The notes beneath the pieces were generated by a model. That model did no database searches and was not told the DNA's origin. It saw only the letters and a program-made list of their open reading frames with translations. From assembly GCA_018609195.1 (NCBI GenBank), contig JAHCSE010000018.1, positions 4,750 to 68,749 of the forward strand: a DNA stretch of 64,000 bases, read 5' to 3'. This document shows, in pieces, positions 3,200 through 55,859 of the stretch. Position 1 is the stretch's first letter. Every line of letters begins with the position of its first letter. This stretch comes from Patescibacteria group bacterium (GTDB lineage: Bacteria; Patescibacteriota; Minisyncoccia; Minisyncoccales; RBG-13-36-15). The translations under genes and the position numbers were made by a program.

Positions 3200-3212
3200 A
3201 TTTGATAAATTG

Positions 3213-4370
3213 TTAAATTATTTTTTTCTGATTATTCCGATGAACGGCCATTGCTTTTTGCACTCTCTCCTGAGCAATATCTATTGCTGCCTTGCGTGGA
3301 TTTATTCCGTACCTTTCTGCATTTTCTAAAATCATTTTTGTATTTCTTGAAATTTTGCGCTTTATCACTCGGAACATATCTTTTGGGTTATATCCACGGT
3401 ATTCTGCATATGACGAAATGACTCCACCTGCATTTGCAATGATATCCGGGACCACAACAATCCCTCTTTCTTGTAGCTTTTTTTCAATATCATGGGGAAT
3501 GGGAATGTTTGCAGCTTCGATAATGATTTTTGCCTCGACCTTTTTATAATTATCGTTAGTAATTACATTTGGAATAGCAGCAGGAATTAAAATATCAACT
3601 GGTAGTTCAAATATTTCCTCATGTAATAACTTTTTTCCTTCTTTGTATTGGGTGACCGAACCTTTCCTTTTAGCTTCAAGAAGTTTTGGAAAATCTAGCC
3701 CATCCGCATCATAAATCGTACCCTTAATATCAGAAGTAGCGACTACTTTTGCACCCATTTCTCTCAAATATTTTGCCGCAAATTCTCCCACATTACCAAA
3801 ACCCTCGATTGCAATGCGCGCTCCTGCAATATCCATACCAATATGATTGGTTGCAACTTTTGTTGCCTCAGCTACCCCAGATCCCGTACTCCCAAACTCA
3901 TGAGGAATGCCGCATTTTTCACCTGGCTTGCCAAAAATTTTCATACAAAGATTTGCTGGTTTACCAGTGGCTGCGTGCCAATTTCCGTTTGCCTCAACAA
4001 ACCATTGCATCTCACGTTCTCCCAAGTTCATATCTGGTGCCGCAATATATTGCTTTGGGGCAAAGGGTTTGAGTGCTCTCGAAAATGCCTGGACTATTTC
4101 TTTTTTTTCTTCTTCGGAATAACTCTTTGGGTCAAAAACAATACCTGCTTTTGCTCCACCAAAAGGTAACTCTGCTAAGGCATTTTTCCAAGTCATGGTA
4201 CGAGCTAGTGTAAAGATCTCCTCCAGTGTTATATCAGGCGTCATGCGGATTCCTCCCTTTCCAGGACCAAGAGTAGTATTATCTATTACTAAAAAACCTC
4301 GCATGCCGTTTTTTGAATCGTAAACCTCTAAAAGATATTCAGGGCCAAATTTATCCTTTTTAATATTCAT
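3213..4370 (-). CDS. gdh: Glu/Leu/Phe/Val dehydrogenase family (glutamate dehydrogenase-like)
   Basis: GPGKGGIRM catalytic-lysine motif and GFGNVG Rossmann motif. Confidence 0.85.
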   Translation of the reverse strand: MNIKKDKFGPEYLLEVYDSKNGMRGFLVIDNTTLGPGKGGIRMTPDITLEEIFTLARTMTWKNALAELPFGGAKAGIVFDPKSYSEEEKKEIVQAFSRALKPFAPKQYIAAPDMNLGEREMQWFVEANGNWHAATGKPANLCMKIFGKPGEKCGIPHEFGSTGSGVAEATKVATNHIGMDIAGARIAIEGFGNVGEFAAKYLREMGAKVVATSDIKGTIYDADGLDFPKLLEAKRKGSVTQYKEGKKLLHEEIFELPVDILIPAAIPNVITNDNYKKVEAKIIIEAANIPIPHDIEKKLQERGIVVVPDIIANAGGVISSYAEYRGYNPKDMFRVIKRKISRNTKMILENAERYGINPRKAAIDIAQERVQKAMAVHRNNQKKII

Positions 4371-4552
4371 GACAACTTGACCATATCATGTGCATATATA
4401 TTTATCAGTGATTTGTGTCACATAAAGAATTACATGGAAGAACCCTAGTTATAATAGAAGAAAGTACCCGTCACTTCATCTCCTAGGCGGAGTGCTATAG
4501 GATTTTTTGAACAAATTTCTTCCAATCTATCTTTATTTTTGATACTCTTATA

Positions 4553-4948
4553 ATGATGTCTCTGAAAAAACAAAATAAACAAAAGAAAGTTATGGTGTTT
4601 GGAGTGTTTGACGGAATTCATGAGGGGCACAGAAATTTTTTAAAGCAAGCGAAACAATACGGGGATTATCTGCTTGTTGTTGTGGCACCAGACGAAGCTG
4701 TACAGCAATTTAAAAATCGGCTAGCACGTTTCAGCTTACCAGAGAGAATAAACTTTCTGAGCAAAGAGGGGATAGTTGATGAAATAGTAGAGGGGGACAG
4801 GGTTCAATATAGTTGGAAAGTGATAAAGAAGCATCAACCCTCGATCATTGCACTCGGTTATGATCAAGGGGCTATACGCAAAGAATTAGAAGCGATTCGG
4901 TATAGTTTTCCTTTCGCTCTCAAAATAAGCACCATGGATGCCTATTGA
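4553..4948 (+). CDS. cytidylyltransferase-like nucleotidyltransferase (FAD synthetase/RibF-N-like)
   Basis: VFGVFDGIHEGHRNFL (HxGH-type motif) near the N-terminus; 131 aa. Confidence 0.5.
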   Translation: MMSLKKQNKQKKVMVFGVFDGIHEGHRNFLKQAKQYGDYLLVVVAPDEAVQQFKNRLARFSLPERINFLSKEGIVDEIVEGDRVQYSWKVIKKHQPSIIALGYDQGAIRKELEAIRYSFPFALKISTMDAY

Positions 4949-5054
4949 CCGAATCTGTACTATTCGAGCTCACTTTAATAAGTTATCGCCCGAGAGTTGT
5001 TGCCTCGGACTTTTTTCTTAGGTATTCAAACCCTCTAAATGATATAATCAACAT

Positions 5055-5771
5055 ATGGAGCATTTTTTCTTTTTCATAATTGCCTTTATTGCTGCAGTAA
5101 TTGGAACTATAGCGGGCTTCGGTACAGCTACTATTTTAACACCATTTAGTTCTCTGGTGATTGATATCAAGGTGGCCATTGTTTTGGTAGCCTTTTTTCA
5201 TTTATTTAGGAATGTATCTACAATTTTTCTTTTTAAAAAAATAAATTGGGGAATATTTTTAAAATTTGGTATTCCCAGTATTGGGGCTTCATTCCTCGGC
5301 GCCAAACTCATAGCCATACTAGATACAGAAACCGTAAAAGTTATTTTTGGTTTATTTTTGATAACTTTTGTTTTTTATTCCTTTACGAAAAAAGTCATTC
5401 AGCTAAGACCAGTCAATTATGTTGCGTTTGGAGGTGGATTGGGTTCAGGATTTTTAGCAGGGCTCATTGGTACAGGCGGAGCCATTCGTTCACTTTTTTT
5501 GAATGCTTTTGGCTTGCCTAAAGAAGTTTATATAGCCACTTCAGCGATGATTGCCATTGTTATTGATTTAACCAGAATACCTGTGTATTTTGCAAGTGGG
5601 ATTATTTTGGATAAAATTTACCTCTATTATATCCCAGCTTTAATTGTAATAGCTTTTTTCGGAGTTATAATCGGGAAAGGGATAGTCAAGAAAATACCAA
5701 CCGAAACTTTTAGAAGAGTGGTGTTAATGGCCTTACTTTTGATTGGGCTAACGTTATTATTCGGAATTTAA
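5055..5771 (+). CDS. TauE/SafE (DUF81) family anion exporter
   Basis: About 8 TM helices and a duplicated G-rich motif (GFGTATILTP / GLIGTGGAIR). Confidence 0.8.
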   Translation: MEHFFFFIIAFIAAVIGTIAGFGTATILTPFSSLVIDIKVAIVLVAFFHLFRNVSTIFLFKKINWGIFLKFGIPSIGASFLGAKLIAILDTETVKVIFGLFLITFVFYSFTKKVIQLRPVNYVAFGGGLGSGFLAGLIGTGGAIRSLFLNAFGLPKEVYIATSAMIAIVIDLTRIPVYFASGIILDKIYLYYIPALIVIAFFGVIIGKGIVKKIPTETFRRVVLMALLLIGLTLLFGI

Positions 5772-5792
5772 ATAAACCAAATCGAAAATCGT

Positions 5793-5935
5793 CTACCCCA
5801 GTACCATTCGGTACGGGGTAGGTATGAACCGGCTGGTTCTGTACCACGACTCCCAGCCACAGCACCATTCGGTGCGTGGCTAGGCACGAACCGTATGGTT
5901 CTGTGCCAGCCCCAGTCACCGAATTAAAACCTTGA
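5793..5935 (+). repeat. about 2.5 tandem copies of a ~56-nt double-hairpin unit (structured RNA candidate)
   Basis: CCCCaGTACCattcGGTACGGGG + GAACCggctGGTTC, then CAGCCACaGCACCattcGGTGCGTGGCT + GCACGAACCgtatGGTTCtGTGC. Stems differ but stay complementary (compensatory changes). Confidence 0.6.
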
Positions 5936-5965
5936 GCGCGGTTCGAGAGACCGAGCAAGTAAAAG

Positions 5966-5995
5966 AATCGCCAAGAAGGCGGTTTTTTGATATGC
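5966..5995 (+). terminator. ATCGCC..GGCGGT hairpin + T-run (member of window-wide hairpin family)
   Basis: aatcgccaagaaggcggttttttgata. Confidence 0.55.
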
Positions 5996-6001
5996 AAAAA
6001 C

Positions 6002-6030
6002 TTGACAAAACGGAAATACGGGCGTATCAT
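6002..6030 (+). promoter_or_regulatory. sigma70-like promoter of the GC-rich ORF
   Basis: TTGACA (6002-6007), 17-nt spacer, TATCAT (6025-6030). Confidence 0.5.
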
Positions 6031-6100
6031 AGAGGTATTGGACAGTAACGATTCCGTAGTTTTACGGGCTCCGAGTAATCTCGGGGAAAGGAGACAAGTC

Positions 6101-6490
6101 ATGAGTGGATACGGATTTGCGGATCGTAGTCAGCCTACTCCTGCACCGCAAGCGCCAAAGATGACTTACAAGCAGATGCTTGAGGTTATCAATTCGGTCA
6201 AGCCTGGTGATAGGCTTCGTATAGTCTTCGCCGATGAGGAGTTCGATGGCGATCTCAAGGGTCGCGTCTATCATATCCTTGCGATGTGTGCCCCGGTCGG
6301 TCGAGCTATAGACATCGGCGAGCTTCCGATGTTCAACCTTCAGGCGGTCGCCGACAGTGGCAGGTGGATAGGATTTCGCACCTACGTCGCCACGATCCTC
6401 GACGGGTTCGATCCCAGACACTTTGTCAGCCGTACAATCGGGCACGACATGCTTGAGAGCATCAACCGAATCGATGGTCCGCTGATCTGA
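6101..6490 (+). CDS. hypothetical protein encoded in GC-rich island (129 aa from MSGYGFADRSQ)
   Basis: ATG 6101 is preceded by GGAGA. Strongly GC-rich compared with flanks. A hairpin + T-run follows (6515-6560). No recognisable domain. Confidence 0.5.
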   Translation: MSGYGFADRSQPTPAPQAPKMTYKQMLEVINSVKPGDRLRIVFADEEFDGDLKGRVYHILAMCAPVGRAIDIGELPMFNLQAVADSGRWIGFRTYVATILDGFDPRHFVSRTIGHDMLESINRIDGPLI

Positions 6491-6638
6491 TTTATCCTTA
6501 CAAGGGCTTCGGCTCAAGAAGGTCTCTTAACAGCCAGTTAGGAGACTTTTGTTTTTAAACAAAATATAGTGAGTTAACGAGTAGGGTAGAATAAGCTAAA
6601 TACTCAAATTTAACTTAAAAAATTTCTCAAAATTCGCT

Positions 6639-6662
6639 TACCCCAGGGTAGGATTCGAACCT
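6639..6662 (-). other. isolated tRNA 3'-end fragment (T-loop + acceptor 3' strand)
   Basis: Minus strand reads AGGTTCGAATCCTACCCTGGGGTA. There is no matching 5' half, D-arm or anticodon arm upstream. Confidence 0.4.
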
Positions 6663-6853
6663 TTATCGTTAAATTAATATTTTTTTATTTGAAAAGACAA
6701 TTTTAATATTGACATATTTTTTAAATATGTTATGTTTAAAGAGTAATAAGGTGGATTTCCCTGCATCATCATAATAAAAAAAAAGGGAAAAAATGTTCGT
6801 TAATAATTGAATATTCTGCACGAAAGAAAAAACAGAGAGGAGAGGAAAAGAAC

Positions 6854-7852
6854 ATGGTAACTCCTGAGATTTCTCGTCCAAAAAGAAGCAGGACATACAC
6901 CAAAAGAATTCAGATTAAGAGGTTCTCTCACAATCCCCTGATAGTTCCTGATCCAAACAGTTCTTGGATGAAAGTCGCCGTATTTAATTGCGGCGTAATC
7001 AAAGATGATAACGATGGTTTGTATAAAATGTTATTTAGAGCCACTTCTCGCAAGGACCACCAATATTCTAATATTGGGCTGGCCCTGAGTGAGGACGGAA
7101 AAAACTGGTCTATCCATGATGAGCCGGTATTACGAAGAGGCTTTAATCAATACTGTGCACGAGGAATTGAAGATCCGAGAATTATTCAATGGGTTGACGG
7201 GTGGTATTATGTCTTTGCCGCCGTCAAATCTGCCACTGCAGAACCTGACAATGTGCGAGTAGGAATTTTCAGAACAAAGGACTTCTTTGAGTATGAATGG
7301 GTAGGTTTTTCTTTTAATCGAATAGACAGGAATACTGTGGTCTTCCCTGAACCAATAGGGAATTGCGCATTTTTACTTCACAGGACGTATCCACATATCT
7401 GGATTTCAAGGAGTGAAGATCTCAGCCTTAATAATAACTGGCAGGACGGTCAGATTCTAATTAAATCAGAAGAATTGTATCCAAATCCACACAACGAAGT
7501 TAAGCCTTGGAAAATCGGAATTGCCTCTCCACCAATCAAAACTCCAAAGGGGTGGTTAGTGCTAATTAATACTTCTAACAAAGAGAGTCGTTATGACGTG
7601 GAGAGGGTATACAGTCTCGGATTTGCGGTTTTGGATCTACACGATCCAACCAAGGTAAACTATATTCATCCTGAGCCCATTTTGTGGCCTGCTGAAGAAT
7701 ACGAAACTATTGGGTGTGTACCCAATGTATGCTTCTGTTGTGCAGCGGTAGATACTGGAGGAGATGACATTTATGTTTACTATGGCGGCGCAGATACCGT
7801 TGTCGCTGGAGGTATACTCCACAAGGAAGAATTGGAAGGAATTTGTTACTAA
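6854..7852 (+). CDS. GH130-family glycoside phosphorylase/hydrolase (DUF377-type beta-propeller)
   Basis: NPLIVPD, VFNCGVI, IGLALSEDGKNW, GIEDPRI and VYYGGAD motifs typical of GH130. Confidence 0.7.
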   Translation: MVTPEISRPKRSRTYTKRIQIKRFSHNPLIVPDPNSSWMKVAVFNCGVIKDDNDGLYKMLFRATSRKDHQYSNIGLALSEDGKNWSIHDEPVLRRGFNQYCARGIEDPRIIQWVDGWYYVFAAVKSATAEPDNVRVGIFRTKDFFEYEWVGFSFNRIDRNTVVFPEPIGNCAFLLHRTYPHIWISRSEDLSLNNNWQDGQILIKSEELYPNPHNEVKPWKIGIASPPIKTPKGWLVLINTSNKESRYDVERVYSLGFAVLDLHDPTKVNYIHPEPILWPAEEYETIGCVPNVCFCCAAVDTGGDDIYVYYGGADTVVAGGILHKEELEGICY

Positions 7853-18453: not shown

Positions 18454-18888
18454 ATGGCAAAATCAAATCACAATGCCAAGGGATGGCCTCGAGATAGCTA
18501 CACCGGCCCCGGCGGCGGACTATATACCGACCCAGGGGGAGGGCTTTATACCGGTCCTGGCGGCGGAGCGTATACTGGACCCGGCGGCGGTCTTTACACA
18601 GGGCCTGGAGGAGGTTTGTACACTGGGCCAGGTGGCGGATTATATACCGGACCGGGTGGTGGCCTCTACACTGGCCCCGGTGGTGGATTATCTACGGGTC
18701 CGGGAGGAAGTCTTTATACAGGCCCAGGTGGAGGGCTGTACACTGGACCCGGTGGGGGTCTTTATACTGGACCATGCGAAGAACCTTACTATAGCAATTG
18801 GCCGCCTAGGGAAGTTTTTCTCAAACACTTAAAGGAGCTTGGTATGGATGATATATACCAGCTTCTCAAAGATAGTTGGGGTTTATAA
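18454..18888 (+). CDS. Gly/Tyr-rich octapeptide-repeat protein with small alpha-helical C-terminal domain
   Basis: 15-aa head, 11.5 x (Y-T-G-P-G-G-G-L), 37-aa tail CEEPYYSNWPPREVFLKHLKELGMDDIYQLLKDSWGL. The repeat peptide is conserved only in this frame. Confidence 0.6.
   Translation: MAKSNHNAKGWPRDSYTGPGGGLYTDPGGGLYTGPGGGAYTGPGGGLYTGPGGGLYTGPGGGLYTGPGGGLYTGPGGGLSTGPGGSLYTGPGGGLYTGPGGGLYTGPCEEPYYSNWPPREVFLKHLKELGMDDIYQLLKDSWGL
18499..18774 (+). repeat. 11.5 tandem 24-nt repeats (coding)
   Basis: Units differ mostly at third codon positions (e.g. ggc/ggt/gga/ggg, ctt/ttg/tta/ctc/ctg). Confidence 0.9.
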
Positions 18889-19251: not shown

Positions 19252-19884
19252 ATGTTAGTTTTTATTGACGAGTCTGGAGATCCAGGATTAAAAATAGAAA
19301 AAGGATCTAGTCGATATTTCACGGTATCGTTGGTTATATTTGAGGAGAGAGATGAGGCCTTGGCTTGCGATCAGAGAATCAATCTTTTGAGAAAAGAATT
19401 AGGCTGGGAGCCAAATAGCGAATTCCATTTTAAAAGAAACTCCGATAAGGTAAGGCGGGCTTTTTTACAGGCGGTGGCTCCATATAATTTTTTCTATTAT
19501 GGAATTGTTATTAATAAAGACCCCAAAAAGCTTTGGGGTGAGGGTTTTAGAGATAAAAAATCTTTTTATAAATATACTTGTGGTTTAGTATTTGAAAATG
19601 CAAAAGAGAAGTTAGAAAGCGCAATCATCATAATTGATAAAAGCGGAAATTTAGATTTTAGAAGACAGTTGGCAAAATATTTACGAAAGAGAATGAATGA
19701 AAGAGATAAGAAATTAATTAGAAAAGTAAAAATGCAACGATCGAGTGGGAATAATTTATTGCAGTTAGCGGATTATGTTGCGGGTGTGATAAATAGATCT
19801 ATCCAAAAAGGGAAGAAATATGCAGAGGAATACAGAAAAATCATAGCGCATAGAGAAATTTATGTTCAAATTTGGCCAAAATAA
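19252..19884 (+). CDS. DUF3800 domain protein
   Basis: MLVFIDESGDPG N-terminus and C-terminal LLQLADYVAG, typical of DUF3800. Confidence 0.8.
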   Translation: MLVFIDESGDPGLKIEKGSSRYFTVSLVIFEERDEALACDQRINLLRKELGWEPNSEFHFKRNSDKVRRAFLQAVAPYNFFYYGIVINKDPKKLWGEGFRDKKSFYKYTCGLVFENAKEKLESAIIIIDKSGNLDFRRQLAKYLRKRMNERDKKLIRKVKMQRSSGNNLLQLADYVAGVINRSIQKGKKYAEEYRKIIAHREIYVQIWPK

Positions 19885-20042
19885 GAACCTTGCCTTCGGC
19901 AGAACCTTGATTCCTTTGGAATTAAGAACCTCACCTTCGATGAGAACCTTGTTTTCTTGTTTCACTCGAAAATAAAACTTCCGAGCCTATCCCTTTCGGG
20001 AACGCGGCGATAAACGCCACAGTTCAGCTCGGAAGCAATTCC
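19885..20042 (-). ncRNA. candidate structured sRNA convergent on DUF3800 (three-way junction + AGGTTCT/hairpin repeats)
   Basis: Minus-strand TTGACA (20078-20073), 18 nt, TAATAT (20054-20049). Then CUUCCGAGC..GCUCGGAAG closes two hairpins (GUGGCG/CGCCGC, UCCC-GAAA-GGGA) followed by UUUUAUUUU. After that come 4 x AGGUUCU separated by small hairpins. Confidence 0.4.
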
Positions 20043-24373: not shown

Positions 24374-25771
24374 ATGGCAAGAAGAGTCTCAAAAAGGAAA
24401 AAAGGATTAAAGAAAAGAAAAAAGATTAAAAAAATCCGAAAATCTCAGGTTCAAGAGAAAGTTTTTGATTTTCAACCAAGGAAAATCAAAATGAAGGTAG
24501 TTGGCATTGGTGGAGGAGGAAGTTCAATTGTTTCAGGAATTGCTCCTAAATTAAAGAAAATAAAATTTGTGGTAGCCAATACCGACCTACAAGCTTTAAA
24601 GAAATCAGCGAAAGGGGTTACAAAATTTCATTTTGGTAAAGATTTTACTCGAGGACTGGGAACGGGAATGAATCCTGAGTTAGCTGAGAGAGCTGCTCTG
24701 GCAGAAATAGAAAAAATTAAAAAAATTTTTCGGGGTCAAGATCTCTCGATTTTAATTTCTTGTCTGGGAGGAGGAACAGGATCAGGAGCTACCCCTATCT
24801 TTGGTCAAGCAGCTAAAGATTTAAAAAATTATACATTAGGTATTTTTACTTTGCCTTTTTTGTTTGAAGGGGAAAAAAGGTTAGCAATAGCATTAAATGC
24901 CCTGGAAAAAATAAGGCCAAATTTAAATTCAATTGTTATTGTTCCCAATGAAAGAGTTTTCCAGTTAATTTCTCAAAAAACGCCAATTAAAGAGGCTTTC
25001 TCTGCTATTAATAAGATTTTAGCTGAAAACTTGGAGGGATTGATTGAAATGTTATATTTAGCAGGTTTAATTAATATTGATTTTGCTGATGTAAAAACTA
25101 TTCTCTCTGGGAAAGGAAGGCTTTCTTATTTACATACAGTTTTGATTCAAGGGGGAAATAAGGTTGAAGAAGAAGCTAAGAAAATCTTGGAAAATCCATT
25201 TTATGAATATACAATGGAAGGGGCAGACAGAATCTTATTTAATATTTCAGGTGGGAAAGATTTGAAAATTACAGAAGTTGAAAAAATTAGTAAACGCATC
25301 GCAGATTCCAATAAAAAAGCAAAAATTATTTTTGGAATATCGGAGAATGAAAAATACAAAAATAAAATAAAAATTACGCTGCTGGCCGTAGGCTGTAGAG
25401 AAAAACCAAAAATTTCTACTCCAGCCAAGAAAAAGATTTCTAAAATTAAAAAAATCACTAAAATTACTCGCCTCGCTCTCGCCTCGCCTCGGCGGAGCGG
25501 GTCGGAGGCGAAGCGGGCTCGCCTCGCTGAAGCTACGGCGAAGCGGGCCAAAAAGTCTAAAAAAAACAAAAAGAAAGAGATTAAATCAGAAGAGTCTAGT
25601 ACTAGTAAAAATCTAGTCTTTTCTCCAGAAATTAAAGAGGAGAAAACGGAGATGAAAACGAGGAGAAATGCTCTGGAACTAAAACAAGAAGCAGAGCAGG
25701 CTGAAAAAGAACACCTATCCAGAGAGGCTGCGTGGGATATTCCTGCTTTTTTAAGAAGGAGAAAAAAATAA
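24374..25771 (+). CDS. ftsZ: cell division GTPase FtsZ with basic N-extension and long C-terminal linker
   Basis: GIGGGGSSIV, GGGTGSGATPI (tubulin signature), and C-terminal DIPAFLRRRK peptide. Confidence 0.85.
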   Translation: MARRVSKRKKGLKKRKKIKKIRKSQVQEKVFDFQPRKIKMKVVGIGGGGSSIVSGIAPKLKKIKFVVANTDLQALKKSAKGVTKFHFGKDFTRGLGTGMNPELAERAALAEIEKIKKIFRGQDLSILISCLGGGTGSGATPIFGQAAKDLKNYTLGIFTLPFLFEGEKRLAIALNALEKIRPNLNSIVIVPNERVFQLISQKTPIKEAFSAINKILAENLEGLIEMLYLAGLINIDFADVKTILSGKGRLSYLHTVLIQGGNKVEEEAKKILENPFYEYTMEGADRILFNISGGKDLKITEVEKISKRIADSNKKAKIIFGISENEKYKNKIKITLLAVGCREKPKISTPAKKKISKIKKITKITRLALASPRRSGSEAKRARLAEATAKRAKKSKKNKKKEIKSEESSTSKNLVFSPEIKEEKTEMKTRRNALELKQEAEQAEKEHLSREAAWDIPAFLRRRKK

Positions 25772-27632: not shown

Positions 27633-28946
27633 TTGCAATCTAAAATCGAAAATCTAAAAGCAAGAGAGATTCTTGATTCAAGGGGAGAGCCCACCGTAGA
27701 AGTACAATTAATCACTAATGTTGGTGATTTTTTTTCTTCGGTTCCGTCAGGATCCTCAAAAGGAAAATATGAGGCAGTAGAGATAAGAGATGGCGGAAAG
27801 AGGTATCACGGGAGGGGAGTAGGGAAGGCTGTACGGAATGTTAATGAAATAATATTCCCGCAACTCAAGGGAAAAGATGTTAGAGATCAGAAAACGATTG
27901 ATGAGATTTTAATTCAACTAGATGGAACAAAAAATAAATCAAAATTAGGGGCTAATGCCATTTTACCCGTAAGTATAGCAACCTGCCGAGCTGGAGCTGC
28001 GGCAGAAAATTTACCTCTTTATAAGTACATTCAAAAGATTTTTCAACCAAGATACCCGCCAAAGGCAAGGCTCGCCAGGGGCGGCAAGATACAAGCTACC
28101 CCGAAAGAGAGCAAGCATCCTACGGGGCAAGCACGCTACAAACTCCCTATCCCTTGCTTTAATATCATCAATGGGGGAGTACACGCTGGTAATGAATTGG
28201 CACTTCAAGAGTTTATGATTGTTCCTCAATTTAAATCAATTAAAAAGTCTCTTCAGGCAGCTTCAGAAATTTATCATACTCTTAAGAAAATCTTAATAAA
28301 ACATTTTGGGAGGAAATCTGTGAATGTTGGGGATGAAGGAGGTTTCGCCCCGCCCCTGTCTTACACGAAAGAGGCTCTCAGCTTACTAATGGCAGCGATT
28401 AAAGAAGCAGGCTACAACCAAAAAGTACAAGTTGGTTTAGACGTAGCTGGTTCCCAAATTTTTGAAAAGGGAGTCTATAAGTTAGATAAAACAATTTTTA
28501 TCAGAGCGGGTTTAATAATCTTTTATCAAGACCTTATTAAAAAATATCCGATTGTTTTTATTGAAGATCCCTTTTTTGAAGAAGATTGGGTGGGATTTCA
28601 AGAGATTACTCAAAAGTTAGGCAAGAAAATAACTATTTTTGGTGATGATTTATTAGCTACAAATACGGAAAGGATAAAAACGGCTCAAAATAAGAAAGCT
28701 TGCAACGGTTTGATTTTAAAACCAAATCAGATTGGCACAGTGACGGAAACCATAGAAGCTGCAAAACTATCCAGATCTTTTGGTTGGAAGATAATGGTCT
28801 CGCATCGCTCAGGAGAAACGAGGGACGATTTTATTGCAGATTTAGCAGTAGGAATTTCAGCTGACTTTATTAAAGCCGGAGCCCCAGCCAGAGGGGAAAG
28901 ATTAGCAAAGTATAATAGGCTAGTAAGAATTGAGGAGGAATTATGA
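27633..28946 (+). CDS. eno: enolase (with ~30-aa GC-rich insertion)
   Basis: AREILDSRGEPTVEV, NIINGGVHAGN, SHRSGETRD. TTG start. Confidence 0.9.
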   Translation: MQSKIENLKAREILDSRGEPTVEVQLITNVGDFFSSVPSGSSKGKYEAVEIRDGGKRYHGRGVGKAVRNVNEIIFPQLKGKDVRDQKTIDEILIQLDGTKNKSKLGANAILPVSIATCRAGAAAENLPLYKYIQKIFQPRYPPKARLARGGKIQATPKESKHPTGQARYKLPIPCFNIINGGVHAGNELALQEFMIVPQFKSIKKSLQAASEIYHTLKKILIKHFGRKSVNVGDEGGFAPPLSYTKEALSLLMAAIKEAGYNQKVQVGLDVAGSQIFEKGVYKLDKTIFIRAGLIIFYQDLIKKYPIVFIEDPFFEEDWVGFQEITQKLGKKITIFGDDLLATNTERIKTAQNKKACNGLILKPNQIGTVTETIEAAKLSRSFGWKIMVSHRSGETRDDFIADLAVGISADFIKAGAPARGERLAKYNRLVRIEEEL

Positions 28947-30193
28947 AAATTCTTTTTATTGTCATTGATGGCCTGGGTGATCGGCCAATTTCTGAATTAG
29001 GGGAAAAAACTCCGCTGGAGGCCGCTAAAACTCCAAATTTAGATCGGTTGGCTAAAAATGGAATTTGTGGGCAGATTTCACCTTTTCAATTTCCCTGGCA
29101 GAAATATCCAGTATCAGACACTGCCCATTTAGCTCTATTTGGCTATAACCCAAAAATTCATTATTTAGGCCGAGGACCCTATGAAGCAGCTGGAATTGGA
29201 ATGGAATTAAAGAAAGGAGACGTGATATTAAGAGTAAATTTTGGCACAGTAAACAGGAAGCTTAAGGTAATTGACAGGAGGGCAGGAAGAATAGAAAAGA
29301 CCGAACTTTTCGTAAAAGCTTTAAATGGAATCAAGATTGAAGGAGTTACATTTTTGGTAAAAAAATCTTTTGGCCACCGAGCAGTACTAATCTTGAGAGG
29401 GAAAAATCTATCAGAGAAAATAACCGATTGTGATCCAAAAAAAACAGGGAAGATTATGAAAAAGGCAGTTCCTTCAACAAGCGCGAAGGGAAAGGAGTTA
29501 AGTAAAGCTAAATTTACTGCGGACATTTTGAATAGATTTTTAGAAAAGGCGCATTTTATTTTAAAAAATCACCCTCTGAATAAAAAAAGAATCAAAGAAA
29601 AGAAATTACCCGCAAATTATTTCTTAGTAAGAGGAGCAGGAAAGTTTAAAAAGACAACCAGTTTTTATCAAAAATATAAATTAAACGCTTGTTGTATTGT
29701 AGGAGGAGCCTTATACAAGGGGATAGGAAAGATTTTGGGAATGAAATTGATAAAAGTCAAAGGAGCTACCGGTTTTCCCACTACGAATTTGAAAGGAAAA
29801 TTCCAGGCAGCAAAAAAAGCTTTAAAAAAACCTGCCCCGTACCGAAACGCAGTTTCTGGTGCGGGGTACGATTTTGTTTTTCTTCATATTAAGGCTGCAG
29901 ATACCTTGGGAGAAGATGGAAATTTTCAAGGAAAAAAAGAATTTATTGAAAAAATTGATAAGAATTTAAAAATTTTAATGGATCTAAAGAATGTTTTAAT
30001 TGTAATAACTGGCGATCATTCCACTTGTTCCAAACTCAAAAGCCATTGTTCGGAGCCAGTGCCAATTTTAATATATGGGAATAGGAAAGATAAAGTTCGA
30101 GAATTTGGAGAAAGAGCTTGTAAAAAGGGGAAATTAGGGACGATTGAGGGATTAAATGTAATGCCAAAAATTTTAGCTCTGATGAAATCATAG
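28943..30193 (+). CDS. apgM: 2,3-bisphosphoglycerate-independent phosphoglycerate mutase, archaeal type
   Basis: MKILFIVIDGLGDRP, YDFVFLHIKAAD and ITGDHST motifs of ApgM. Confidence 0.85.
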   Translation: MKILFIVIDGLGDRPISELGEKTPLEAAKTPNLDRLAKNGICGQISPFQFPWQKYPVSDTAHLALFGYNPKIHYLGRGPYEAAGIGMELKKGDVILRVNFGTVNRKLKVIDRRAGRIEKTELFVKALNGIKIEGVTFLVKKSFGHRAVLILRGKNLSEKITDCDPKKTGKIMKKAVPSTSAKGKELSKAKFTADILNRFLEKAHFILKNHPLNKKRIKEKKLPANYFLVRGAGKFKKTTSFYQKYKLNACCIVGGALYKGIGKILGMKLIKVKGATGFPTTNLKGKFQAAKKALKKPAPYRNAVSGAGYDFVFLHIKAADTLGEDGNFQGKKEFIEKIDKNLKILMDLKNVLIVITGDHSTCSKLKSHCSEPVPILIYGNRKDKVREFGERACKKGKLGTIEGLNVMPKILALMKS

Positions 30194-30560: not shown

Positions 30561-30593
30561 ATGATAAAAGTCGCAATCAATGGTTTTGGCCGT
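30561..30593 (+). pseudogene. orphan N-terminal fragment of a second gap allele (MIKVAINGFGR)
   Basis: atgataaaagtcgcaatcaatggttttggccgt parallels the real start atgccaagaattgcaataaatggatttggtagg (30650). It runs into a GC-rich hairpin and stops. Confidence 0.55.
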
Positions 30594-30649
30594 ACCCCAC
30601 ACCAGAACAGAGTTCGGTACGGGGCAAGTTGGCCGCCCGGTAATAAATT

Positions 30650-31669
30650 ATGCCAAGAATTGCAATAAATGGATTTGGTAGGATTGGGAGACCCACTTTC
30701 AAGAAAATTTTAAAAGACCATTCCGATTTGGAAGTGGTAGCGATTAATGATTTGACAGATACGAAAACCTTGGCTCATCTGTTAAGATATGATTCTGTTT
30801 ATGGAATCTATAATAAACAAGTAAAATCTTCTGAAGATTCCCTTTTAATCGATGGAAAGCGCGATGGAAAAAAAGTTAAGGTTTTAGCTGAGACAGATCC
30901 CGCAAAACTCCCTTGGAAAAATCTGGGAATAGATCTTGTTTTGGAATGCACTGGCAGGTTCACTGAAATTGAGGGAGCAAAAAAGCATTTGGCAGCAGGA
31001 GCTAAAAAAGTGATAATCTCTGCCCCCTGTAAAAGCCCAGGGGTGAAAACTTTTGTTTTGGGAGTAAATGAAGAAATGTATGATCCGAAAGCAGATAATG
31101 TAATTTCAATGGCTTCTTGTACTACCAATTGTTTCGCTAACGTAGTTAAAGTTTTAAATGACAATTTCAAGATAATTCGGGGTTTTATGACCACTGTCCA
31201 TAGTTATACCAATGATCAAAGAGTTCTGGATTTACCCCATAGGGATTTGCGAAGAGCAAGGGCAGCAGCCTTAAATATTATTCCAACTACCACAGGGGCA
31301 GCAAAAGCCATTGGTAGGATTATTCCTGAATTAGAAGGGAAATTAAATGGTATTGCCTTTCGAGTTCCCACTCCCACAGTATCAATTTTAGATTTAATTT
31401 GTGAAGTTGAAAAGAAAACAACTACTGAGGAAGTAAATTATATTTTTAAAAAGGCTTCTGAAAAAAAAGAACTACAGGGAATTTTAGGAATAGAGGACAC
31501 TCCCTTAGTTTCTTCTGATTATATTGGCAATTCTTTCTCTGCAATTGTTGATAGCCCTTTGACTATGGTCAAAGACAATTTGGTCAAAGTTGTCGCCTGG
31601 TACGATAACGAATGGGCATACGCTTGTCGTCTTGCTGAGTTCGCAGAATTTGTTGGAAAGAAACTTTAA
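30650..31669 (+). CDS. gap: type I glyceraldehyde-3-phosphate dehydrogenase
   Basis: INGFGRIGR, SCTTNC and WYDNEW motifs. Confidence 0.9.
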   Translation: MPRIAINGFGRIGRPTFKKILKDHSDLEVVAINDLTDTKTLAHLLRYDSVYGIYNKQVKSSEDSLLIDGKRDGKKVKVLAETDPAKLPWKNLGIDLVLECTGRFTEIEGAKKHLAAGAKKVIISAPCKSPGVKTFVLGVNEEMYDPKADNVISMASCTTNCFANVVKVLNDNFKIIRGFMTTVHSYTNDQRVLDLPHRDLRRARAAALNIIPTTTGAAKAIGRIIPELEGKLNGIAFRVPTPTVSILDLICEVEKKTTTEEVNYIFKKASEKKELQGILGIEDTPLVSSDYIGNSFSAIVDSPLTMVKDNLVKVVAWYDNEWAYACRLAEFAEFVGKKL

Positions 31670-31866
31670 TTTTTGATTAACTAAATAAATAAAGTTAGCG
31701 TATGCCCATTCGCACAGGAGGGGTCGGGAGGATTGGGTATCCTCCCGTGGTGGAAAAATAGGAGGTTGCCGAAGGCAACCGACGTAAGAAACCGAAGGTG
31801 TCTTAGGAGCGGAGCGAAGCGAACCCGAAGGGCGAGCGCCTGAACAAAGTGAAGGAAGAGCGGAGC

Positions 31867-31929
31867 GACGAATGGGCTTACGCCTGCCGTCTAGCTGAAT
31901 TTGCAGAATATGTTGGAAAAAAGCTATAA
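31867..31929 (+). pseudogene. orphan C-terminal fragment of a second gap allele (DEWAYACRLAEFAEYVGKKL*)
   Basis: 20 codons + stop parallel the real C-terminus NEWAYACRLAEFAEFVGKKL* (31607-31669), with mostly synonymous differences. Confidence 0.6.
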
Positions 31930-31953
31930 TCTTGAAAGTTAATGGCGTAATTA

Positions 31954-31977
31954 AGCGAGGCTTCGCCTCGCTTTTTT
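31954..31977 (+). terminator. intrinsic terminator
   Basis: agcgaggcttcgcctcgct + ttttt. Confidence 0.75.
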
Positions 31978-32031
31978 ATTTGGTTTTGCATAGGCTTTTT
32001 ATTTCAGGTATAATAAAATTACAATAAAAAT

Positions 32032-32657: not shown

Positions 32658-34625
32658 TTGCAATATATGATCAAAAAAGGTAATTTGTATTTTCCAACGA
32701 AAGAATTCAAAAAAAGGGCTTTGATAAAAAGTGCGGCAATCTATAAGACAGCCGCTAAAAATCCAATTAAATTTTGGGAGAAGTTAGCCAAAGAGCTTTT
32801 ATGGCAAAAGAAATGGAAAAAAGTATTTTCCCACCGACCACCCTATTTTAAATGGTTTGTCGGAGGAAAATTAAACATTACCGAGAATTGTCTGGAGAGA
32901 AATCTTGAAAAAAGGAAAAACAAAGTAGCTTTCATTTGGGAACCAGAACCAATAGCCGCTCCAAATGGGCGAGCCTCGCCCAGTAAAACTGGGCGGGAAG
33001 AAAGAGAAAGGTATTTCACATATTATGATTTGTATAGAGAAGTTAATAAATTAGCCAATGCTCTTAAAAAATTAGGGGTGAAAAAAGGAGATCGAGTAGG
33101 AATTTATTTGCCAATGATTCCTGAAGCAATAATTTCAATGTTGGCCTGTGCCAGAATAGGAGCTATTCATACTGTCGTTTTTTCTGCCTTCTCCCCACAA
33201 GCGCTACGGATAAGGCTTCAAGATACTACAGCCAAAATTTTAATCACGGCTGATGGTTACTATCGAAAAGGTAAAATTATTAATTTAAAACAAAATGCAG
33301 ATAAAGGGGTAAAAAGCACTAAAGTGAAGAAGGTAATTGTGGTAAAGCGAGCGAAAAACGAAATTCCCTGGCAAAGAAAACGAGATCTCTGGTGGTCAGA
33401 TTTAATTAAAAATGAAAAAGAATTCTGCAAACCTGCAGCAATGGATAGTGAAGATACTTTATTTATTCTCTACACGTCGGGAAGCACCGGGAAACCAAAA
33501 GGAATAGTTCACACCACAGGTGGCTATATGGTACAAGCCAATTTCACCGGCAAATGGATTTTTGATTTAAAAGAAGATGATATTTTCTGGTCTATGGCAG
33601 ATGTAGGTTGGATTACCGGGCATACGTACAGTTGTTACGGGCCATTACTGACAGGCACCACCTTTTTAATTTTTGAAGGGGCACCAGATTGGCCGACTCC
33701 TGACAGGTGGTGTAAAATCATTGAGAAATATGGAGTCACTACTTTTTATACAGCTCCCACTGCCATTCGGATGTTTGAAAAATACGGGATAAAACTTCTC
33801 AAAAGATATACATTTAATACTTTACAAATTTTAGGCTCAGTAGGAGAACCAATCGATACAGCAGCCTGGCAATGGTATTTTAAAGAAGTTGGGAGAGAAA
33901 AATGCCCAATTGTTGATACTTGGTGGCAAACAGAAACAGGTGGAATTTTAATAACTTCTCTTCCTGGAATCGGGCCCTTTAAACCAGCTTTCACTGGTTT
34001 GCCCTTCCCTGGATTACGAGTTAATATTTTAGACGAAAAGGGGAAATCTCTTCCAGTTCACAAAGAGGGGAACTTGGTGATTTTACCTCCTTTTGCTCCT
34101 GGATTATTAAGAGGAGTGTATAAAAATCCAAAAAAATATTTAGAAACCTATTGGAGTCAATACGGGAAGAGAATCTATTTTACCTCAGATACAGCATACC
34201 GCGATAAAAATGGTCTCATCAGAATTGTGGGAAGAGTAGATGATGTAATTAAAGTAGCTGGTCATAGATTAACTACCGGAGAGCTGGAAAGTGCAATTGC
34301 GAAACATCCAGATATTACTGAATCAGCCGTGGTTGGCATTCCTGATGAGATTAAGGGAGAGGTACCGGTAGCTTTTGTGGTCTCTCATAAAAAAAGGAAA
34401 GCTGAAACAATAGCAAAAGAGGTGAGAGAACAAGTGAGAAAAGAAATTGGCCCCATTGCCCTGCCAAAAAAAGTTTATTTAGTAGAAGATATTCCAAAAA
34501 CTCGCTCAGGAAAAATTATGAGGAGAATTTTAAAGAGATTATTTACTAAAGAAAAGTTAGGAGACCTTTCTACCTTGGCCAACCCAGAAAGCGTCAAAAA
34601 AATTAAAGAAGTAATTGTTAAATGA
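32658..34625 (+). CDS. acs: acetyl-CoA synthetase (AMP-forming)
   Basis: YTSGSTGKPKG, WWQTETGG and the C-terminal PKTRSGKIMRR motif. Confidence 0.9.
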   Translation: MQYMIKKGNLYFPTKEFKKRALIKSAAIYKTAAKNPIKFWEKLAKELLWQKKWKKVFSHRPPYFKWFVGGKLNITENCLERNLEKRKNKVAFIWEPEPIAAPNGRASPSKTGREERERYFTYYDLYREVNKLANALKKLGVKKGDRVGIYLPMIPEAIISMLACARIGAIHTVVFSAFSPQALRIRLQDTTAKILITADGYYRKGKIINLKQNADKGVKSTKVKKVIVVKRAKNEIPWQRKRDLWWSDLIKNEKEFCKPAAMDSEDTLFILYTSGSTGKPKGIVHTTGGYMVQANFTGKWIFDLKEDDIFWSMADVGWITGHTYSCYGPLLTGTTFLIFEGAPDWPTPDRWCKIIEKYGVTTFYTAPTAIRMFEKYGIKLLKRYTFNTLQILGSVGEPIDTAAWQWYFKEVGREKCPIVDTWWQTETGGILITSLPGIGPFKPAFTGLPFPGLRVNILDEKGKSLPVHKEGNLVILPPFAPGLLRGVYKNPKKYLETYWSQYGKRIYFTSDTAYRDKNGLIRIVGRVDDVIKVAGHRLTTGELESAIAKHPDITESAVVGIPDEIKGEVPVAFVVSHKKRKAETIAKEVREQVRKEIGPIALPKKVYLVEDIPKTRSGKIMRRILKRLFTKEKLGDLSTLANPESVKKIKEVIVK

Positions 34626-38721: not shown

Positions 38722-39441
38722 ATGCTGACCTTACCTGTTAAAATTCGCCAAACTTTTGGAAAGGAAACAAAAACCCTTAGAAATAAGGGTCTTTTACCTG
38801 CTATAGTTTATGGCCCAAAAATAAAATCTCTGCCCTTAGAATTGGATTACAAAATCTTTGAAAAAGTTTACAAAGAAGCTGGAGAAAGCTCTCTCATCTC
38901 TCTTGAGATTGAAAATCAAGGAGAAAAGCCTTCAGTTTTAATTCACGAAATTCAAAAAGATCCTCTATCTGATAAAATAATCCATGTTGATTTTTACCAG
39001 GTTCCTGTAGATAAAGAGGTGGAAGCAAAAGTTTCTTTAATTTTTGAAGGAGAGACAAAAGCAATTAAAGAATTAGGAGGAACCTTAATTAAAAATATTT
39101 CTGAATTGGAAGTTAAAGCCCTTCCTCAAAATTTGCCAAAAGAAATTAAAGTGGGAATTTCACAGCTGAAAACTTTTGAGGATAATATTTTAATTAAAGA
39201 TCTGAAGATACCTAAAGGGGTGAAAATTTTACGAGACCCAGAAGAAATCGTAGCGAATGTCGTTCCCCCTGAAAAAGTTGAAGAGGAATTAGAAAAACCA
39301 ATTACTGAGGCAGTGGAAGAAGTAGAAAAGGTAGCCGCCAAAGGCGAGCCTCGCCAAGAGCGGGAAGAAAAGAAAGAAGAGGAAGAGGTGAAAGAAGAAA
39401 AAGAGGGAAAGAAAGAAGAAGAAAGTGCTAAAGAGAAATAG
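38722..39441 (+). CDS. rplY: ribosomal protein L25/Ctc with K/E-rich tail
   Basis: MLTLPVKIRQTFGKETKTLRNKGLLPAIVYG. The ORF-track N-extension (38647) overlaps the previous gene and is rejected. Confidence 0.85.
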   Translation: MLTLPVKIRQTFGKETKTLRNKGLLPAIVYGPKIKSLPLELDYKIFEKVYKEAGESSLISLEIENQGEKPSVLIHEIQKDPLSDKIIHVDFYQVPVDKEVEAKVSLIFEGETKAIKELGGTLIKNISELEVKALPQNLPKEIKVGISQLKTFEDNILIKDLKIPKGVKILRDPEEIVANVVPPEKVEEELEKPITEAVEEVEKVAAKGEPRQEREEKKEEEEVKEEKEGKKEEESAKEK

Positions 39442-54090: not shown

Positions 54091-54936
54091 TCACACAGTC
54101 TTGCATCCTTGGAGCAGTTCATCAATATCGTTTCCCACATTTTTACCGACATACCCTCCCTCCAAAACAAAAAACGTAGGTTTTCTCAATTTTGCAAGCT
54201 CTTCTCCTATTTTCCGATAAGATTTTCCTGTCAACCCCAAAGAAGCCAAATCCCTTTCATGAGCATCAAACCCAGCTGACACAGCGATAATTTCTATCTT
54301 CTTAAAATCTATTTTTCTCAAAGCCTCTTGTAAAGTTTTCAAATAAATTTCCTCACCACAGTCAGCCTCTAATGGGAAATTAAAATAATTCCCTTTTGAT
54401 TCAAAACCAGTTCCTGGATAATAAGGGGATCTGTGAAGAGAGAAATAAATTACCTTGGAATCTTCAAAGAAAATTTCTTCTGTGCCGTTGCCATGATGGC
54501 CATCGATATCTAAAATTAATGCCGGCTTTCCCAAATATTTAACAGCAATAGCGACATTGTTGAAATAACAAAATCCTCTGGTTGGAACGCCGAGAGCAAA
54601 ACCTGCTCTTCCGGCATGATGGCCGGGAGGTCGCATTAAAGAAAAGCCGCTAACTTTAGCAGCTAAAATTGCACCTCCCGCAGAAAGCATTGCATATTCG
54701 TAAATATTTTCATAGGCTGGCGTATCTGTGTCTTCTATCTTTCCTTTTTTGAGTTTTTCAATGTAATCTGTTTCGTGAACTAAAAGAAGATCTTTTTCAG
54801 AAGCTAATTCAGGTTTTAAAAACTCATATCCTTTCTCTTTAAGAATTTTGGCAGCTATTTTGACCCTCTCTGGACTCTCAATATACCCCTTCCCATACTT
54901 CAAACACCTTTCATCAAAAATTATTTTCCTTTTCAC
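54091..54936 (-). CDS. histone deacetylase-family (AcuC/Aph-like) deacetylase
   Basis: RPPGHHA, DIDGHHGNGT and EGGY motifs. Confidence 0.85.
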   Translation of the reverse strand: MKRKIIFDERCLKYGKGYIESPERVKIAAKILKEKGYEFLKPELASEKDLLLVHETDYIEKLKKGKIEDTDTPAYENIYEYAMLSAGGAILAAKVSGFSLMRPPGHHAGRAGFALGVPTRGFCYFNNVAIAVKYLGKPALILDIDGHHGNGTEEIFFEDSKVIYFSLHRSPYYPGTGFESKGNYFNFPLEADCGEEIYLKTLQEALRKIDFKKIEIIAVSAGFDAHERDLASLGLTGKSYRKIGEELAKLRKPTFFVLEGGYVGKNVGNDIDELLQGCKTV

Positions 54937-55286: not shown

Positions 55287-55859
55287 TTATTTTAGTTTTT
55301 TTAATTTAATGTCGTATATAATATTTTCTATTTTTCTTAGATTTCTTTCTGTTTCATCATATTTTCGCCTTAATTTTCCCGTAAAACCAATCTTAGTAAG
55401 TTCCTCGCTAATATTTTCAATTACTTTTTTATACGAAAGTAACTGTTCAAGATTCTCTGCGCTTGCTATAGTTATTGCTCTTCTTATAAGCTCACCCGTA
55501 AAATCACAGATTCCAGAAATTATCTCCTCTGGCCCCACTTTAATAAAATCAGGAGTTTCTTTTTCAGGTTTGGTTAGAAAGTTATAAAAGGTTATGGCTT
55601 CAATATATTCTTCGACCGCTTCTCTATAAGAAACTTGATTTACCAAATCTTTATTTTTCTTAATTATTTTGTTAATTAATCTAAAAAGATTTTCTACTTT
55701 TTCAATTATCTTTTCACTTTCTTTTATATTATCTCTGCGCAATAAGGCAATCGCTTTTTTAGATGCAACTCTAATTTCATTAGAAATTTTTTGAATCTCG
55801 TATATTAATTCCTGGGTTTCTTGATGCTCTTTAATCGATTTTTTTAATAAATTATTCAT
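55287..55859 (-). CDS. possible translin-family nucleic-acid-binding protein
   Basis: All-alpha 190 aa. GICDFTGELIRRAI resembles the translin/TRAX G..D..GEL.R motif. Weak call. Confidence 0.4.
   Translation of the reverse strand: MNNLLKKSIKEHQETQELIYEIQKISNEIRVASKKAIALLRRDNIKESEKIIEKVENLFRLINKIIKKNKDLVNQVSYREAVEEYIEAITFYNFLTKPEKETPDFIKVGPEEIISGICDFTGELIRRAITIASAENLEQLLSYKKVIENISEELTKIGFTGKLRRKYDETERNLRKIENIIYDIKLKKLK

Follow-up and report, generated by a model that had tools for sequence, protein, structure and literature searches.

The stretch analysed here, referred to as the window, is 64,000 nucleotides of contig JAHCSE010000018.1 from a Patescibacteria group bacterium. It carries an intact gap gene lying between two pieces of a second gap allele, the first 15 codons upstream and the last 20 codons downstream, and a non-coding structured element of ~170 nt separates the gene from the downstream piece. 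A gap gene nested between diverged N- and C-terminal fragments was the central claim of the initial annotation, and it is confirmed here with small corrections to the coordinates. The surrounding gene order is enolase, apgM, glutaredoxin (grx), gap, HD-domain hydrolase, acetyl-CoA synthetase and phosphoenolpyruvate synthase, and the window has a G+C content of 37%. The nearest named genomes with the same gap family belong to the Candidate Phyla Radiation (CPR)/Patescibacteria (Nealsonbacteria, Paceibacter, Gribaldobacteria), and the taxonomy used here is based on these; one gap homolog is labelled Pacearchaeota, a label that we treat as unreliable.

The gap protein belongs to a large family of homologs that are about 80–85% identical. 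For comparison ~180 loci were fetched. Among these, 80 metagenome loci encoding gap relatives were scanned for extra C-terminal fragments, and queries with the reading frame across the junction described below added L173, L174 (with the same cargo in L177 and L178), L176 and L181. Labels starting with L denote metagenome contigs, and those starting with P denote GAPDH proteins from databases. The closest relative of the inner gap is in L182 (85% identity), which is an ordinary empty allele. The features of the locus are as follows.

30561-30594, plus strand: first part of the 5' stub of the displaced resident allele, ATG..GGC CGT A, encoding MIKVAINGFGR plus the first base of an Ile codon.
30595-30628, no strand assigned: palindromic mini-element of 34 nt (CCCCACACC..GGTACGGGGCAAG), which sits in the stub at CGTA^TT.
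30629-30639, plus strand: second part of the 5' stub, TT GGC CGC CCG, encoding (I)GRP; the resident-allele sequence stops here.
30640-30649, plus strand: 10-nt leader GTAATAAATT, which would have arrived with the intact gene; its left edge is the putative illegitimate 5' junction.
30650-31669, plus strand: intact gap, encoding a type I GAPDH of 339 residues (open reading frame (ORF) call, Gp_dh_N and Gp_dh_C domain matches, homologs).
31609-31624, plus strand: A-site, the gap codons (N)EWAYA(C), partner of the antisense block; base 31610 is the junction N320/E321.
31670-31696, plus strand: AT-rich spacer leading from the gap stop codon to the antisense block, 22-31 nt across copies and poorly conserved.
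31697-31712, plus strand: antisense block AGCGTATGCCCATTCG, the 5' strand of the closing helix P1, complementary to 31609-31624.
31713-31811, plus strand: structured core, from a hand alignment of 5 copies, consisting of J1 (31713-31725), P2 (31726-31733/31739-31746), J2 (31747-31763), Pv (31764-31770/31774-31780), P3 (31785-31789/31801-31805) and GGAGCG (31806-31811).
31812-31869, plus strand: variable GCGAAGC-rich part and conserved tail ...GAGCGGAGCGAC, which abuts the displaced gap end.
31870-31929, plus strand: displaced 3' end of the resident gap allele, EWAYACRLAEFAEYVGKKL followed by a stop codon; its first 14 nt are a possible alternative 3' strand of P1.
31953-31983, plus strand: intrinsic terminator (AAGCGAGGCTTCGCCTCGCTT and then a T-run; hairpin 31953-31973), which would serve the whole gap-element-stub transcript.

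The upstream fragment had been read as MIKVAINGFGR at 30561-30593, and this holds. If nucleotides 30595-30628 are removed, the stub reads MIKVAINGFGRIGRP, 15 codons continuing as ...R-I-GRP, which is the consensus N-terminus of the family (P0005, P0010 and others). Because its removal restores the consensus, the GC-rich hairpin at this point is a mini-insertion, and not the cassette border for which it had been taken. A 36-nt relative in the reverse orientation was found by blastn-short at 29835-29870, inside apgM (28943-30193), where it forms a 12-residue in-frame insertion (PAPYRNAVSGAG) that is absent from the apgM of L170. The stub and apgM copies share the insertion context CGTA^TT, and there is a third copy at L085:2961-2989. 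On this comparison the 5' hairpin is a small dispersed palindromic repeat, unrelated to the borders of the incoming gene. The stub itself differs from the real start of gap by 14 nt and 3 amino acids (P = 3e-5 under random placement of substitutions), and at the 5' junction the sequence holds no homology between stub and gene. In relatives the interval between grx and gap is 12-93 nt and contains no stub.

On the 3' side there is a direct repeat of 66 nt (31608-31673 and 31868-31933, 83% identity). The downstream fragment does parallel the C-terminus of gap with mostly synonymous differences, as had been noted, but it starts at 31870: the GAC at 31867-31869, which had supplied a leading D, belongs to the inserted element, so that the N-to-D change is not truly one of the fragment. 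Over 21 codons 11 of 63 nt differ, nine of the 11 at codon position 3, with two amino acid changes (P = 2e-5, on the same basis as above). Like the 5' stub, the 3' stub agrees with the consensus terminus of the family. The mostly synonymous differences in both stubs indicate that stubs and gene are different alleles, each under purifying selection, and hence that the interior of the resident gap was replaced by an incoming gene, and is not the product of a decayed local duplication. This much agrees with the initial annotation, which had inferred that a cassette replaced the interior of a resident gene. Its picture of a cassette bounded by GC-rich elements on both sides has to be given up: the 5' duplication is unique to this genome and the 3' architecture is recurrent, and the GC-rich spacer on the 3' side is no border repeat but a conserved structured element, linked to the 3' end of the replacement gap and with a junction that recurs.

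The only good plus-strand terminator at the locus is the one behind the 3' fragment (31953-31973), as had been stated. In empty alleles a terminator hairpin immediately follows the stop codon of gap. The displaced ends of five copies were compared: all are intact, and their variable sites are distributed 6/2/16 by codon position, compared with 6/3/18 for functional gap ends. Since they are intact and vary as functional ends do, each was a working gene end until recently. By this pattern the displaced fragments are recently displaced ends of different resident alleles, and not descendants of one old pseudogene.

The antisense copy of the gap 3' end is also real, and slightly longer than first described: 31609-31624 and 31697-31712 are inverted repeats that match perfectly over 16 nt. 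No other perfect inverted repeat of at least 14 nt with a loop of at most 150 nt exists in the 64-kb window. The antisense block is in addition complementary at 14 of 15 positions to 31869-31883, that is, to the start of the displaced end.

Contigs from five further samples or runs show the same 3' architecture. The scan of 80 loci found extra C-terminal fragments downstream of an intact gap in L093, L097/L099, L103, L124 (which has two) and L125. The full element module follows an intact gap in the window, L103, L124, L125, L176 and L181, in the order AT-rich spacer, antisense block, core, variable part (missing from L103), and tail GAGCGAY followed by GAATGGGC...; L173 retains only the tail and the displaced fragment. 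The junction is identical in every copy of the element, at WYDN/EWAY, with GAATGGGC starting at the first base of the Glu codon. Uninterrupted gap alleles, in which the terminator comes straight after the gap stop codon, are common, being present in L170, L171, L172, L179 and L182. No second N-terminal gap motif was found in any other locus among those fetched.

The element begins with 14-16 nt antisense to the gap codons for EWAYA, and no reading frame is conserved across its copies. Three hairpins in the core are supported by compensatory changes in the aligned sequences. In L176, three of the 8 base pairs of P2 have both partners changed. Pv has 5-7 bp and a triloop of GAA, AAA or TTT; it shows up to 3 pair types per position, and its stem sequence is almost wholly different in each lineage, with tandem G.A pairs in two of them. 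P3 has 5 bp and one double change, in the window copy. To obtain the covariation, the copies were aligned by hand and analysed with RNAalifold and nhmmer; MAFFT put the cores of the window and L176 out of register, and its alignments were not used. A core profile gives nhmmer matches with E-values of 1e-17 to 1e-23. The window copy folds with z = -3.4 relative to shuffled sequences, and the closing helix in this fold is made by the antisense block and the start of the displaced fragment.

The antisense block thus has two potential partners. In the window, the duplex with the A-site has a predicted energy of -30.5 kcal/mol, compared with -25.4 kcal/mol for the displaced end, and across all copies the upstream partner is favoured or equal. 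The block is conserved in L103, L124, L125, L176 and L181, and covaries with the upstream gap codons. It matches the codons of its own upstream gap at 16/16 positions in the window, at 14/14 in L124, L176 and L181, at 13/14 in L125 and at 11/14 in L103. In L176 and L181 the gene reads NEFAYA (GAATTTGCTTATGC) and the block reads GCATAAGCAAATTC, so that four positions are changed on both sides; the displaced fragment there retains GAATGGGC despite the changes in gene and block. The compensatory changes indicate that a helix with the gap codons is maintained, and an RNA-level role for the pairing (15 bp as first described), which the initial annotation had listed as an alternative, gains support from its conservation in other copies. 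Template switching within a quasi-palindrome can keep the two arms matched without selection, and could be another source of the matching arms seen here.

A copy of the core also occurs apart from the gene end, at L093:283-430. It lies 2.7 kb upstream of the L093 gap, in the intergenic region between a small membrane-protein ORF and an SDR gene. It is smaller, with P2 and P3 but not Pv, and has a closing stem of its own (AAGGTCG/CGACCTT). This stand-alone copy shows that the core is a more general motif, of which the gap-linked form borrows gap sequence as one strand of P1. The variable 3' part seen at 31806-31868 of the window is missing from L103 (1180-1207). It is flanked by direct repeats GAGCGRAGCGA, and from these it looks as if L103 lost it by a deletion between the repeats; this part seems to be dispensable.

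The element is not a catalogued RNA family: in Rfam 15, neither the window element (31697-31869) nor the L103, L124, L125 and L176 copies have a match at E up to 10. A group I or group II intron was considered and rejected, since there is no Rfam intron match and gap is complete upstream, making splicing unnecessary. The AT-rich spacer has no promoter-like site, and an antisense small RNA transcribed on its own was rejected for this reason. In a collection of viral contigs, the exact 16-mer has seven matches, none of which extends into the element, so that they are chance matches, and two structured/degenerate patterns of the core have none. A concatenated six-frame peptide query of the element gave nothing at E up to 1, a search in which low-complexity matches probably filled the candidates. 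We infer that the element is most simply part of the gap 3' untranslated region, co-transcribed up to the terminator behind the stub. P1 is then likely to act as a processing or stability stem for the embedded RNA, which is the explanation of the helix that we prefer. The element is in any case an undescribed structured motif, in which a non-coding element pairs with the coding end of its host gene, the pairing being kept by compensatory change.

The site is also occupied by other kinds of DNA. L174, L177 and L178 carry a HicA toxin gene with a partner ORF that has no Pfam match, and in L174 this unit is followed by a non-coding stretch of ~315 nt. L124 carries MNT/HepT behind the RNA-like element, with two successive displaced ends. 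L093 carries DUF5678 and an aspartyl protease. L097 has a 3-kb island (4024-6996) between gap and the displaced gap 3' end. Directly after gap in this island there is a C-terminal remnant of a Phage_integrase domain, and it also contains a bAvd-like gene, an RVT_1 reverse transcriptase and a GC-rich ORF of 205 residues without a Pfam match; from this gene content the island is likely to hold a diversity-generating retroelement. None of the protein-coding cargo at this site has the antisense block.

These insertions cluster near one codon of gap. Relative to the same Glu codon, homology with the displaced end starts at 0, -11, -12, about -12 and -34 nt. In L093, L097 and L174 the sequence encoding WYDNEW is overlapped by blocks of unbroken identity, 23-32 nt long, and the corresponding block in the window is 10 nt. 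The blocks of L093 and L097 span the WYDN/EW junction, and that of L174 ends 2 nt past it.

In L174, a 36-nt repeat with a palindromic centre (ATGTTAGACATCGGATGTCTAACATCTCTACCCAAT) occurs at 2830-2865 and 3181-3216, closing both units, and its first copy is also in L177 and L178 with one mismatch. The repeat arms GTTAGA...TCTAAC resemble the element hairpin P3 (GTTAGA...TCTAAG).

On the basis of these observations we hypothesise that the DNA encoding WYDNEW, near the end of gap, acts as a hotspot for recombination or integration in CPR/Patescibacteria-like genomes, and that the locus in the window results from C-terminal displacement at this hotspot. We consider this probable. Incoming DNA would bring its own copy of the last ~20 codons, so that gap is preserved in full and the resident 3' end is shifted further down. 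From the clustering of the cargo, the identity blocks, the integrase remnant in L097 and the empty sites, we infer that a site-specific recombinase, of the tyrosine type and supplied in trans, is the most likely agent of the original insertions. Later, homologous recombination within the flanking gap sequence would have moved the module of gap plus element from genome to genome; this would explain why the left breakpoints vary and why element and gene have diverged together. In the window the whole gap would have come in, in a single event, on a piece made up of the 10-nt leader, the entire gap, the spacer and the element. The right end of this piece would have been resolved at the hotspot, and the left end, having no homology, would have been joined illegitimately within resident codon 15/16, leaving the 5' stub and, at the other side, the last codons of the resident gene. 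The small palindromic repeat would have entered the 5' stub as a separate event, before or after the stub was formed.

Through such displacement, a core gene of glycolysis would offer foreign DNA a landing place at its 3' end in CPR-type bacteria, whose genomes are very small and whose gene exchange is poorly understood. The cargo in the present sample comprises the structured RNA-like element, toxin-antitoxin pairs of three kinds and the retroelement island. Displacement would also explain the short GAPDH-like ORFs found downstream of gap. Two features go beyond Rfam and the literature searched, namely that the target of displacement is a housekeeping glycolytic gene in CPR bacteria, and that the element, structured and previously uncatalogued, forms a helix with the coding end of the gene that hosts it.

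Some integrative elements, such as islands in tRNA, tmRNA and protein genes, insert into the 3' end of a gene and make it whole again with a copy of their own, and cis-mobilizable elements are integrase-less derivatives of such islands. The gap loci are similar in that direct repeats of the gap 3' end flank the cargo and share a common identity block, in that relatives have empty sites, and in that the L097 island has an integrase remnant. The window module, having no integrase, is like a cis-mobilizable element. The gap loci are unlike these islands in that no intact integrase was seen at any of them, in that their cargo is very small (about 200 nt to 3 kb), and in that the repeat reaches a different distance to the left from one type of cargo to another. 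The RNA-element class, moreover, contains within it an inverted copy of its target sequence, and 3'-end islands are not known to have one.

Several points weigh against the hypothesis set out above. The integrase trace in L097 is only 53 residues long, with E = 6.9e-5, which is below the Pfam gathering threshold, and it is the sole such remnant. There is no integrase between 31670 and 31869, no recombinase gene lies in or next to the window module, and none was found among the 20 larger ORFs of the window, an incomplete survey. Only six full copies and one partial copy of the element are known, and L176 and L181 are identical over the element, so that the covariation comes from few independent lineages. 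The core is 73-76% identical between copies and the linked gap 78-82% (with the exception of L124 and L125, at 91% in the core). This fits an element that diverged roughly in step with its linked gap, through long co-inheritance and not through frequent independent hopping. That a single event made both stubs is our reading of a 5' stub that occurs in this genome only.

Two pairs of contigs bear on how the ends were exchanged. The gap genes of L180 and L170 are identical over nt 1-947. From the third base of the Asn codon onwards they diverge, with 20 of the last 61 nt different, and the sequences downstream of the two genes differ as well. A switch of this kind would explain database GAPDH proteins that differ only in their last residues (P0007 and P0011). 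In L181 and L176, a run of 455 identical nt begins 201 nt before the junction and ends 5 nt inside the stub; beyond it their stubs are 80% identical and their flanks unrelated. We had considered this pair as proof of a site-specific crossover. However, the flank of L181 resembles that of L125, another carrier of the element, so that a crossover in the conserved tail/junction block suffices, and the argument is weakened; this too counts against the hypothesis.

In the databases, the otherwise identical GAPDH proteins P0009, P0010 and P0012 differ only at their extreme termini. Mosaic gap ends may, from such sequences, be widespread in the family.

The most serious alternative is that homology alone drove the recombination. 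Diverged gap alleles would cross over in their longest identical blocks, of which the WYDNEW block is the last before the stop codon, with no site-specific enzyme. One-sided homology combined with an illegitimate join at the far end, known as homology-facilitated illegitimate recombination (HFIR), would leave the stubs, and the RNA-like element would be the native 3' untranslated region of one gap lineage, passively carried along. We rank such an origin second to the site-specific one, and regard it as possible but doubtful. In its favour, the left breakpoints vary: that of L176/L181 is 201 nt upstream of the junction, that of L180/L170 only 1 nt upstream of it, and that of the window is outside the gene, past its 5' end. 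Several breakpoints can be explained without any other mechanism, which is a further point against the site-specific hypothesis. The divergence of element and gap is similar, L181 is a possible recombinant of two carriers with a crossover in the 25-nt conserved tail/junction block, and the ORF survey of the window found no recombinase. HFIR has moreover been proposed for analogous arrays of type VI secretion system (T6SS) and Rhs genes (PMC5361080). What homology alone accounts for poorly is that five unrelated types of cargo have their displaced-end boundaries within ~35 nt of one codon in a 1-kb gene. Further, the 23-32-nt blocks that L093, L097 and L174 have over the same WYDNEW region look like att cores, and an integrase remnant adjoins gap in L097. 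The right homology arm would be only ~60 nt long; the original experimental studies of HFIR reportedly used homologous anchors of about 150-180 bp or more, which is well above this.

The parallel with these arrays is nevertheless instructive. C-terminal displacement together with HFIR was proposed for T6SS effector-immunity arrays and Rhs loci (PMC5361080), and orphan 3' ends are described for Rhs, contact-dependent inhibition (CDI) and T6SS loci (Kirchberger 2017; Jackson 2009 as cited there; PMC5361080). Incoming DNA in these systems has its anchor in conserved gene sequence; it supplies a new 3' end and displaces the old one downstream, and T6SS and Rhs arrays, once formed, move by homologous recombination (PMC5361080). 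The gap loci resemble them in having an intact gene followed by one or more orphan 3' ends with a conserved coding piece (one in the window, two in L124, and one each in L093, L097 and L174). New ends would likewise be gained by horizontal transfer anchored in the conserved part, and successive displacements would build arrays, as in L124. The differences are that gap encodes a housekeeping glycolytic enzyme and not a polymorphic toxin, and that displaced and replacing ends encode near-identical GAPDH C-termini, so that nothing is diversified and there are no toxin or immunity ends. What is gained at gap is the cargo between the ends. A further difference is the N-terminal stub, present in the window alone.

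A further alternative is that the antisense block determines where the element inserts. The element would then be a tiny protein-less mobile unit, carrying a spare gene end and an inverted copy of its insertion site, that homes by means of an enzyme acting in trans; we think this unlikely. It can be put in two forms. In the first, the gap codons and the antisense block form a folded single-stranded att site whose duplex copies the target, as with CTX-phage attP and integron attC. In the second, the block is an RNA guide beside a structured scaffold and steers a nuclease or recombinase to the EWAYA codons. Of the five distinct copies, four have complementarity that begins at the junction base, and in the window it begins 1 nt further upstream. 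The inverted partner lies ~72 nt inside one end of the element only, and integration through a hairpin att site would produce such a one-ended geometry. Four compensatory changes keep the stem perfect in L176/L181, and the layout, a 14-16-nt antisense block followed by a scaffold of ~150 nt, would suit a guide.

As in CTX-phage attP and integron attC sites, there is an inverted repeat with a spacer of ~70-90 nt near one end of the inserted DNA, the stem reproduces the target, and pairing is kept where the sequence changes. In contrast to those sites, there is no XerCD/dif-like or R''/R' box consensus, and one arm is gap coding sequence: the stem arms (CGAATGGGCATACGCT) do not fit the attC boxes R'' (RYYYAAC) and R' (GTTRRRY). 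No integron integrase was found in the surveyed window ORFs, nor was an attI site found. The same ORFs contain no tnpB, iscB or cas gene, and no Rfam match of any kind, omega-type guide RNAs included, falls in the region. A guide that matches its own functional gene copy at all 16 positions would target the host itself, which sets it apart from the omega RNAs of TnpB and IscB. The block has decayed in L103 and L125, the closing stem of the stand-alone core in L093 is an ordinary one, unconnected with any gene end, and protein-coding cargo reaches the hotspot without the block. If the block did specify the insertion site, this would be a new minimal homing element, able to enter an essential gene without damage.

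It is highly improbable that the arrangement is an artefact or a purely local event, whether co-existing strains wrongly assembled together or a tandemly duplicated gap that later lost sequence and decayed. Such readings might be entertained because the DNA comes from a metagenome assembly, because only this genome has the 5' stub, and because some contigs break in or just after the element, as L002 does. However, a JGI contig (L001) with one mismatch to the window over 10,889 nt has the same 5' stub and join together with the full 3' element and stub, and an independently assembled Logan contig, L002, which ends inside the 3' element, has this 5' stub and join too. No shared sequence crosses the 5' junction that could mislead an assembler, the 3' architecture is found again in the other five samples or runs, and synonymous differences such as those of the stubs are not expected from a recent tandem duplication.

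A diversity-generating retroelement, with template and variable repeats, or another programmed duplication of the gap 3' end, might be thought of because two similar gene ends lie 260 nt apart and because a reverse transcriptase and bAvd adjoin the displaced end in L097, but this reading is effectively refuted by the pattern of mismatches, which are not adenine-specific (A in 3/11 in one copy and 5/11 in the other) and are synonymous, not diversifying, with no reverse transcriptase among the surveyed window ORFs and with differences at non-A positions in the L097 pair too.

The palindromic repeat in the 5' stub deserves a separate comment. Rickettsia palindromic elements are short palindromic repeats inserted in frame into protein genes. 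The 34-36-nt hairpin found here is similar in that it is a short palindrome present in several copies and able to sit in frame in conserved protein genes, one copy adding its 12 residues to apgM without disruption. It is unlike them in length (theirs is roughly 100-150 nt), in having three copies so far, and in having no sequence relationship to them. The apgM of L170 carries a similar-looking 12-residue insert (GVAPRPYGASGN) at a different position.

Other GC-rich islands occur in conserved genes of the window, at 28042-28121 (enolase) and 32938-33013 (acetyl-CoA synthetase), and there are further ones at 39322-39378 and at 25455-25562, in the C-terminal part of the FtsZ ORF (24374-25771). 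The insert in enolase is of 27 residues and is absent from L170. Several of these islands share motifs such as GCCGCCAAAGGCGAGCCTCGCCA and resemble in-frame insertions of short GC-rich repeats. Downstream of a TauE-family gene, a GC-rich stretch of 132 nt (5796-5927) contains several hairpins (e.g. CCCCAGTACCATTCGGTACGGGG), which share the arm GGTACGGGG with the small palindromic element. A longer region of ~320 nt and ~60% G+C at 18469-18788 is built of repeated units such as GGNCCNGGNGGNGGNCTNTAYAC, and may be a glycine-rich (PGGGLYTG-like) repeat in a coding region.

The only gathering-level Rfam match in the window is a DUF3800-IX RNA at 19973-20036 on the minus strand (58 bits). It adjoins a DUF3800 protein gene (19252-19884, plus strand), an association that is known. 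Finally, genes for a Translin-family protein (55287-55859, minus strand) and a histone-deacetylase-domain protein (54091-54936, minus strand) adjoin genes for a PD-(D/E)XK nuclease and a PIF1-like helicase, a combination that is unusual for a bacterium.

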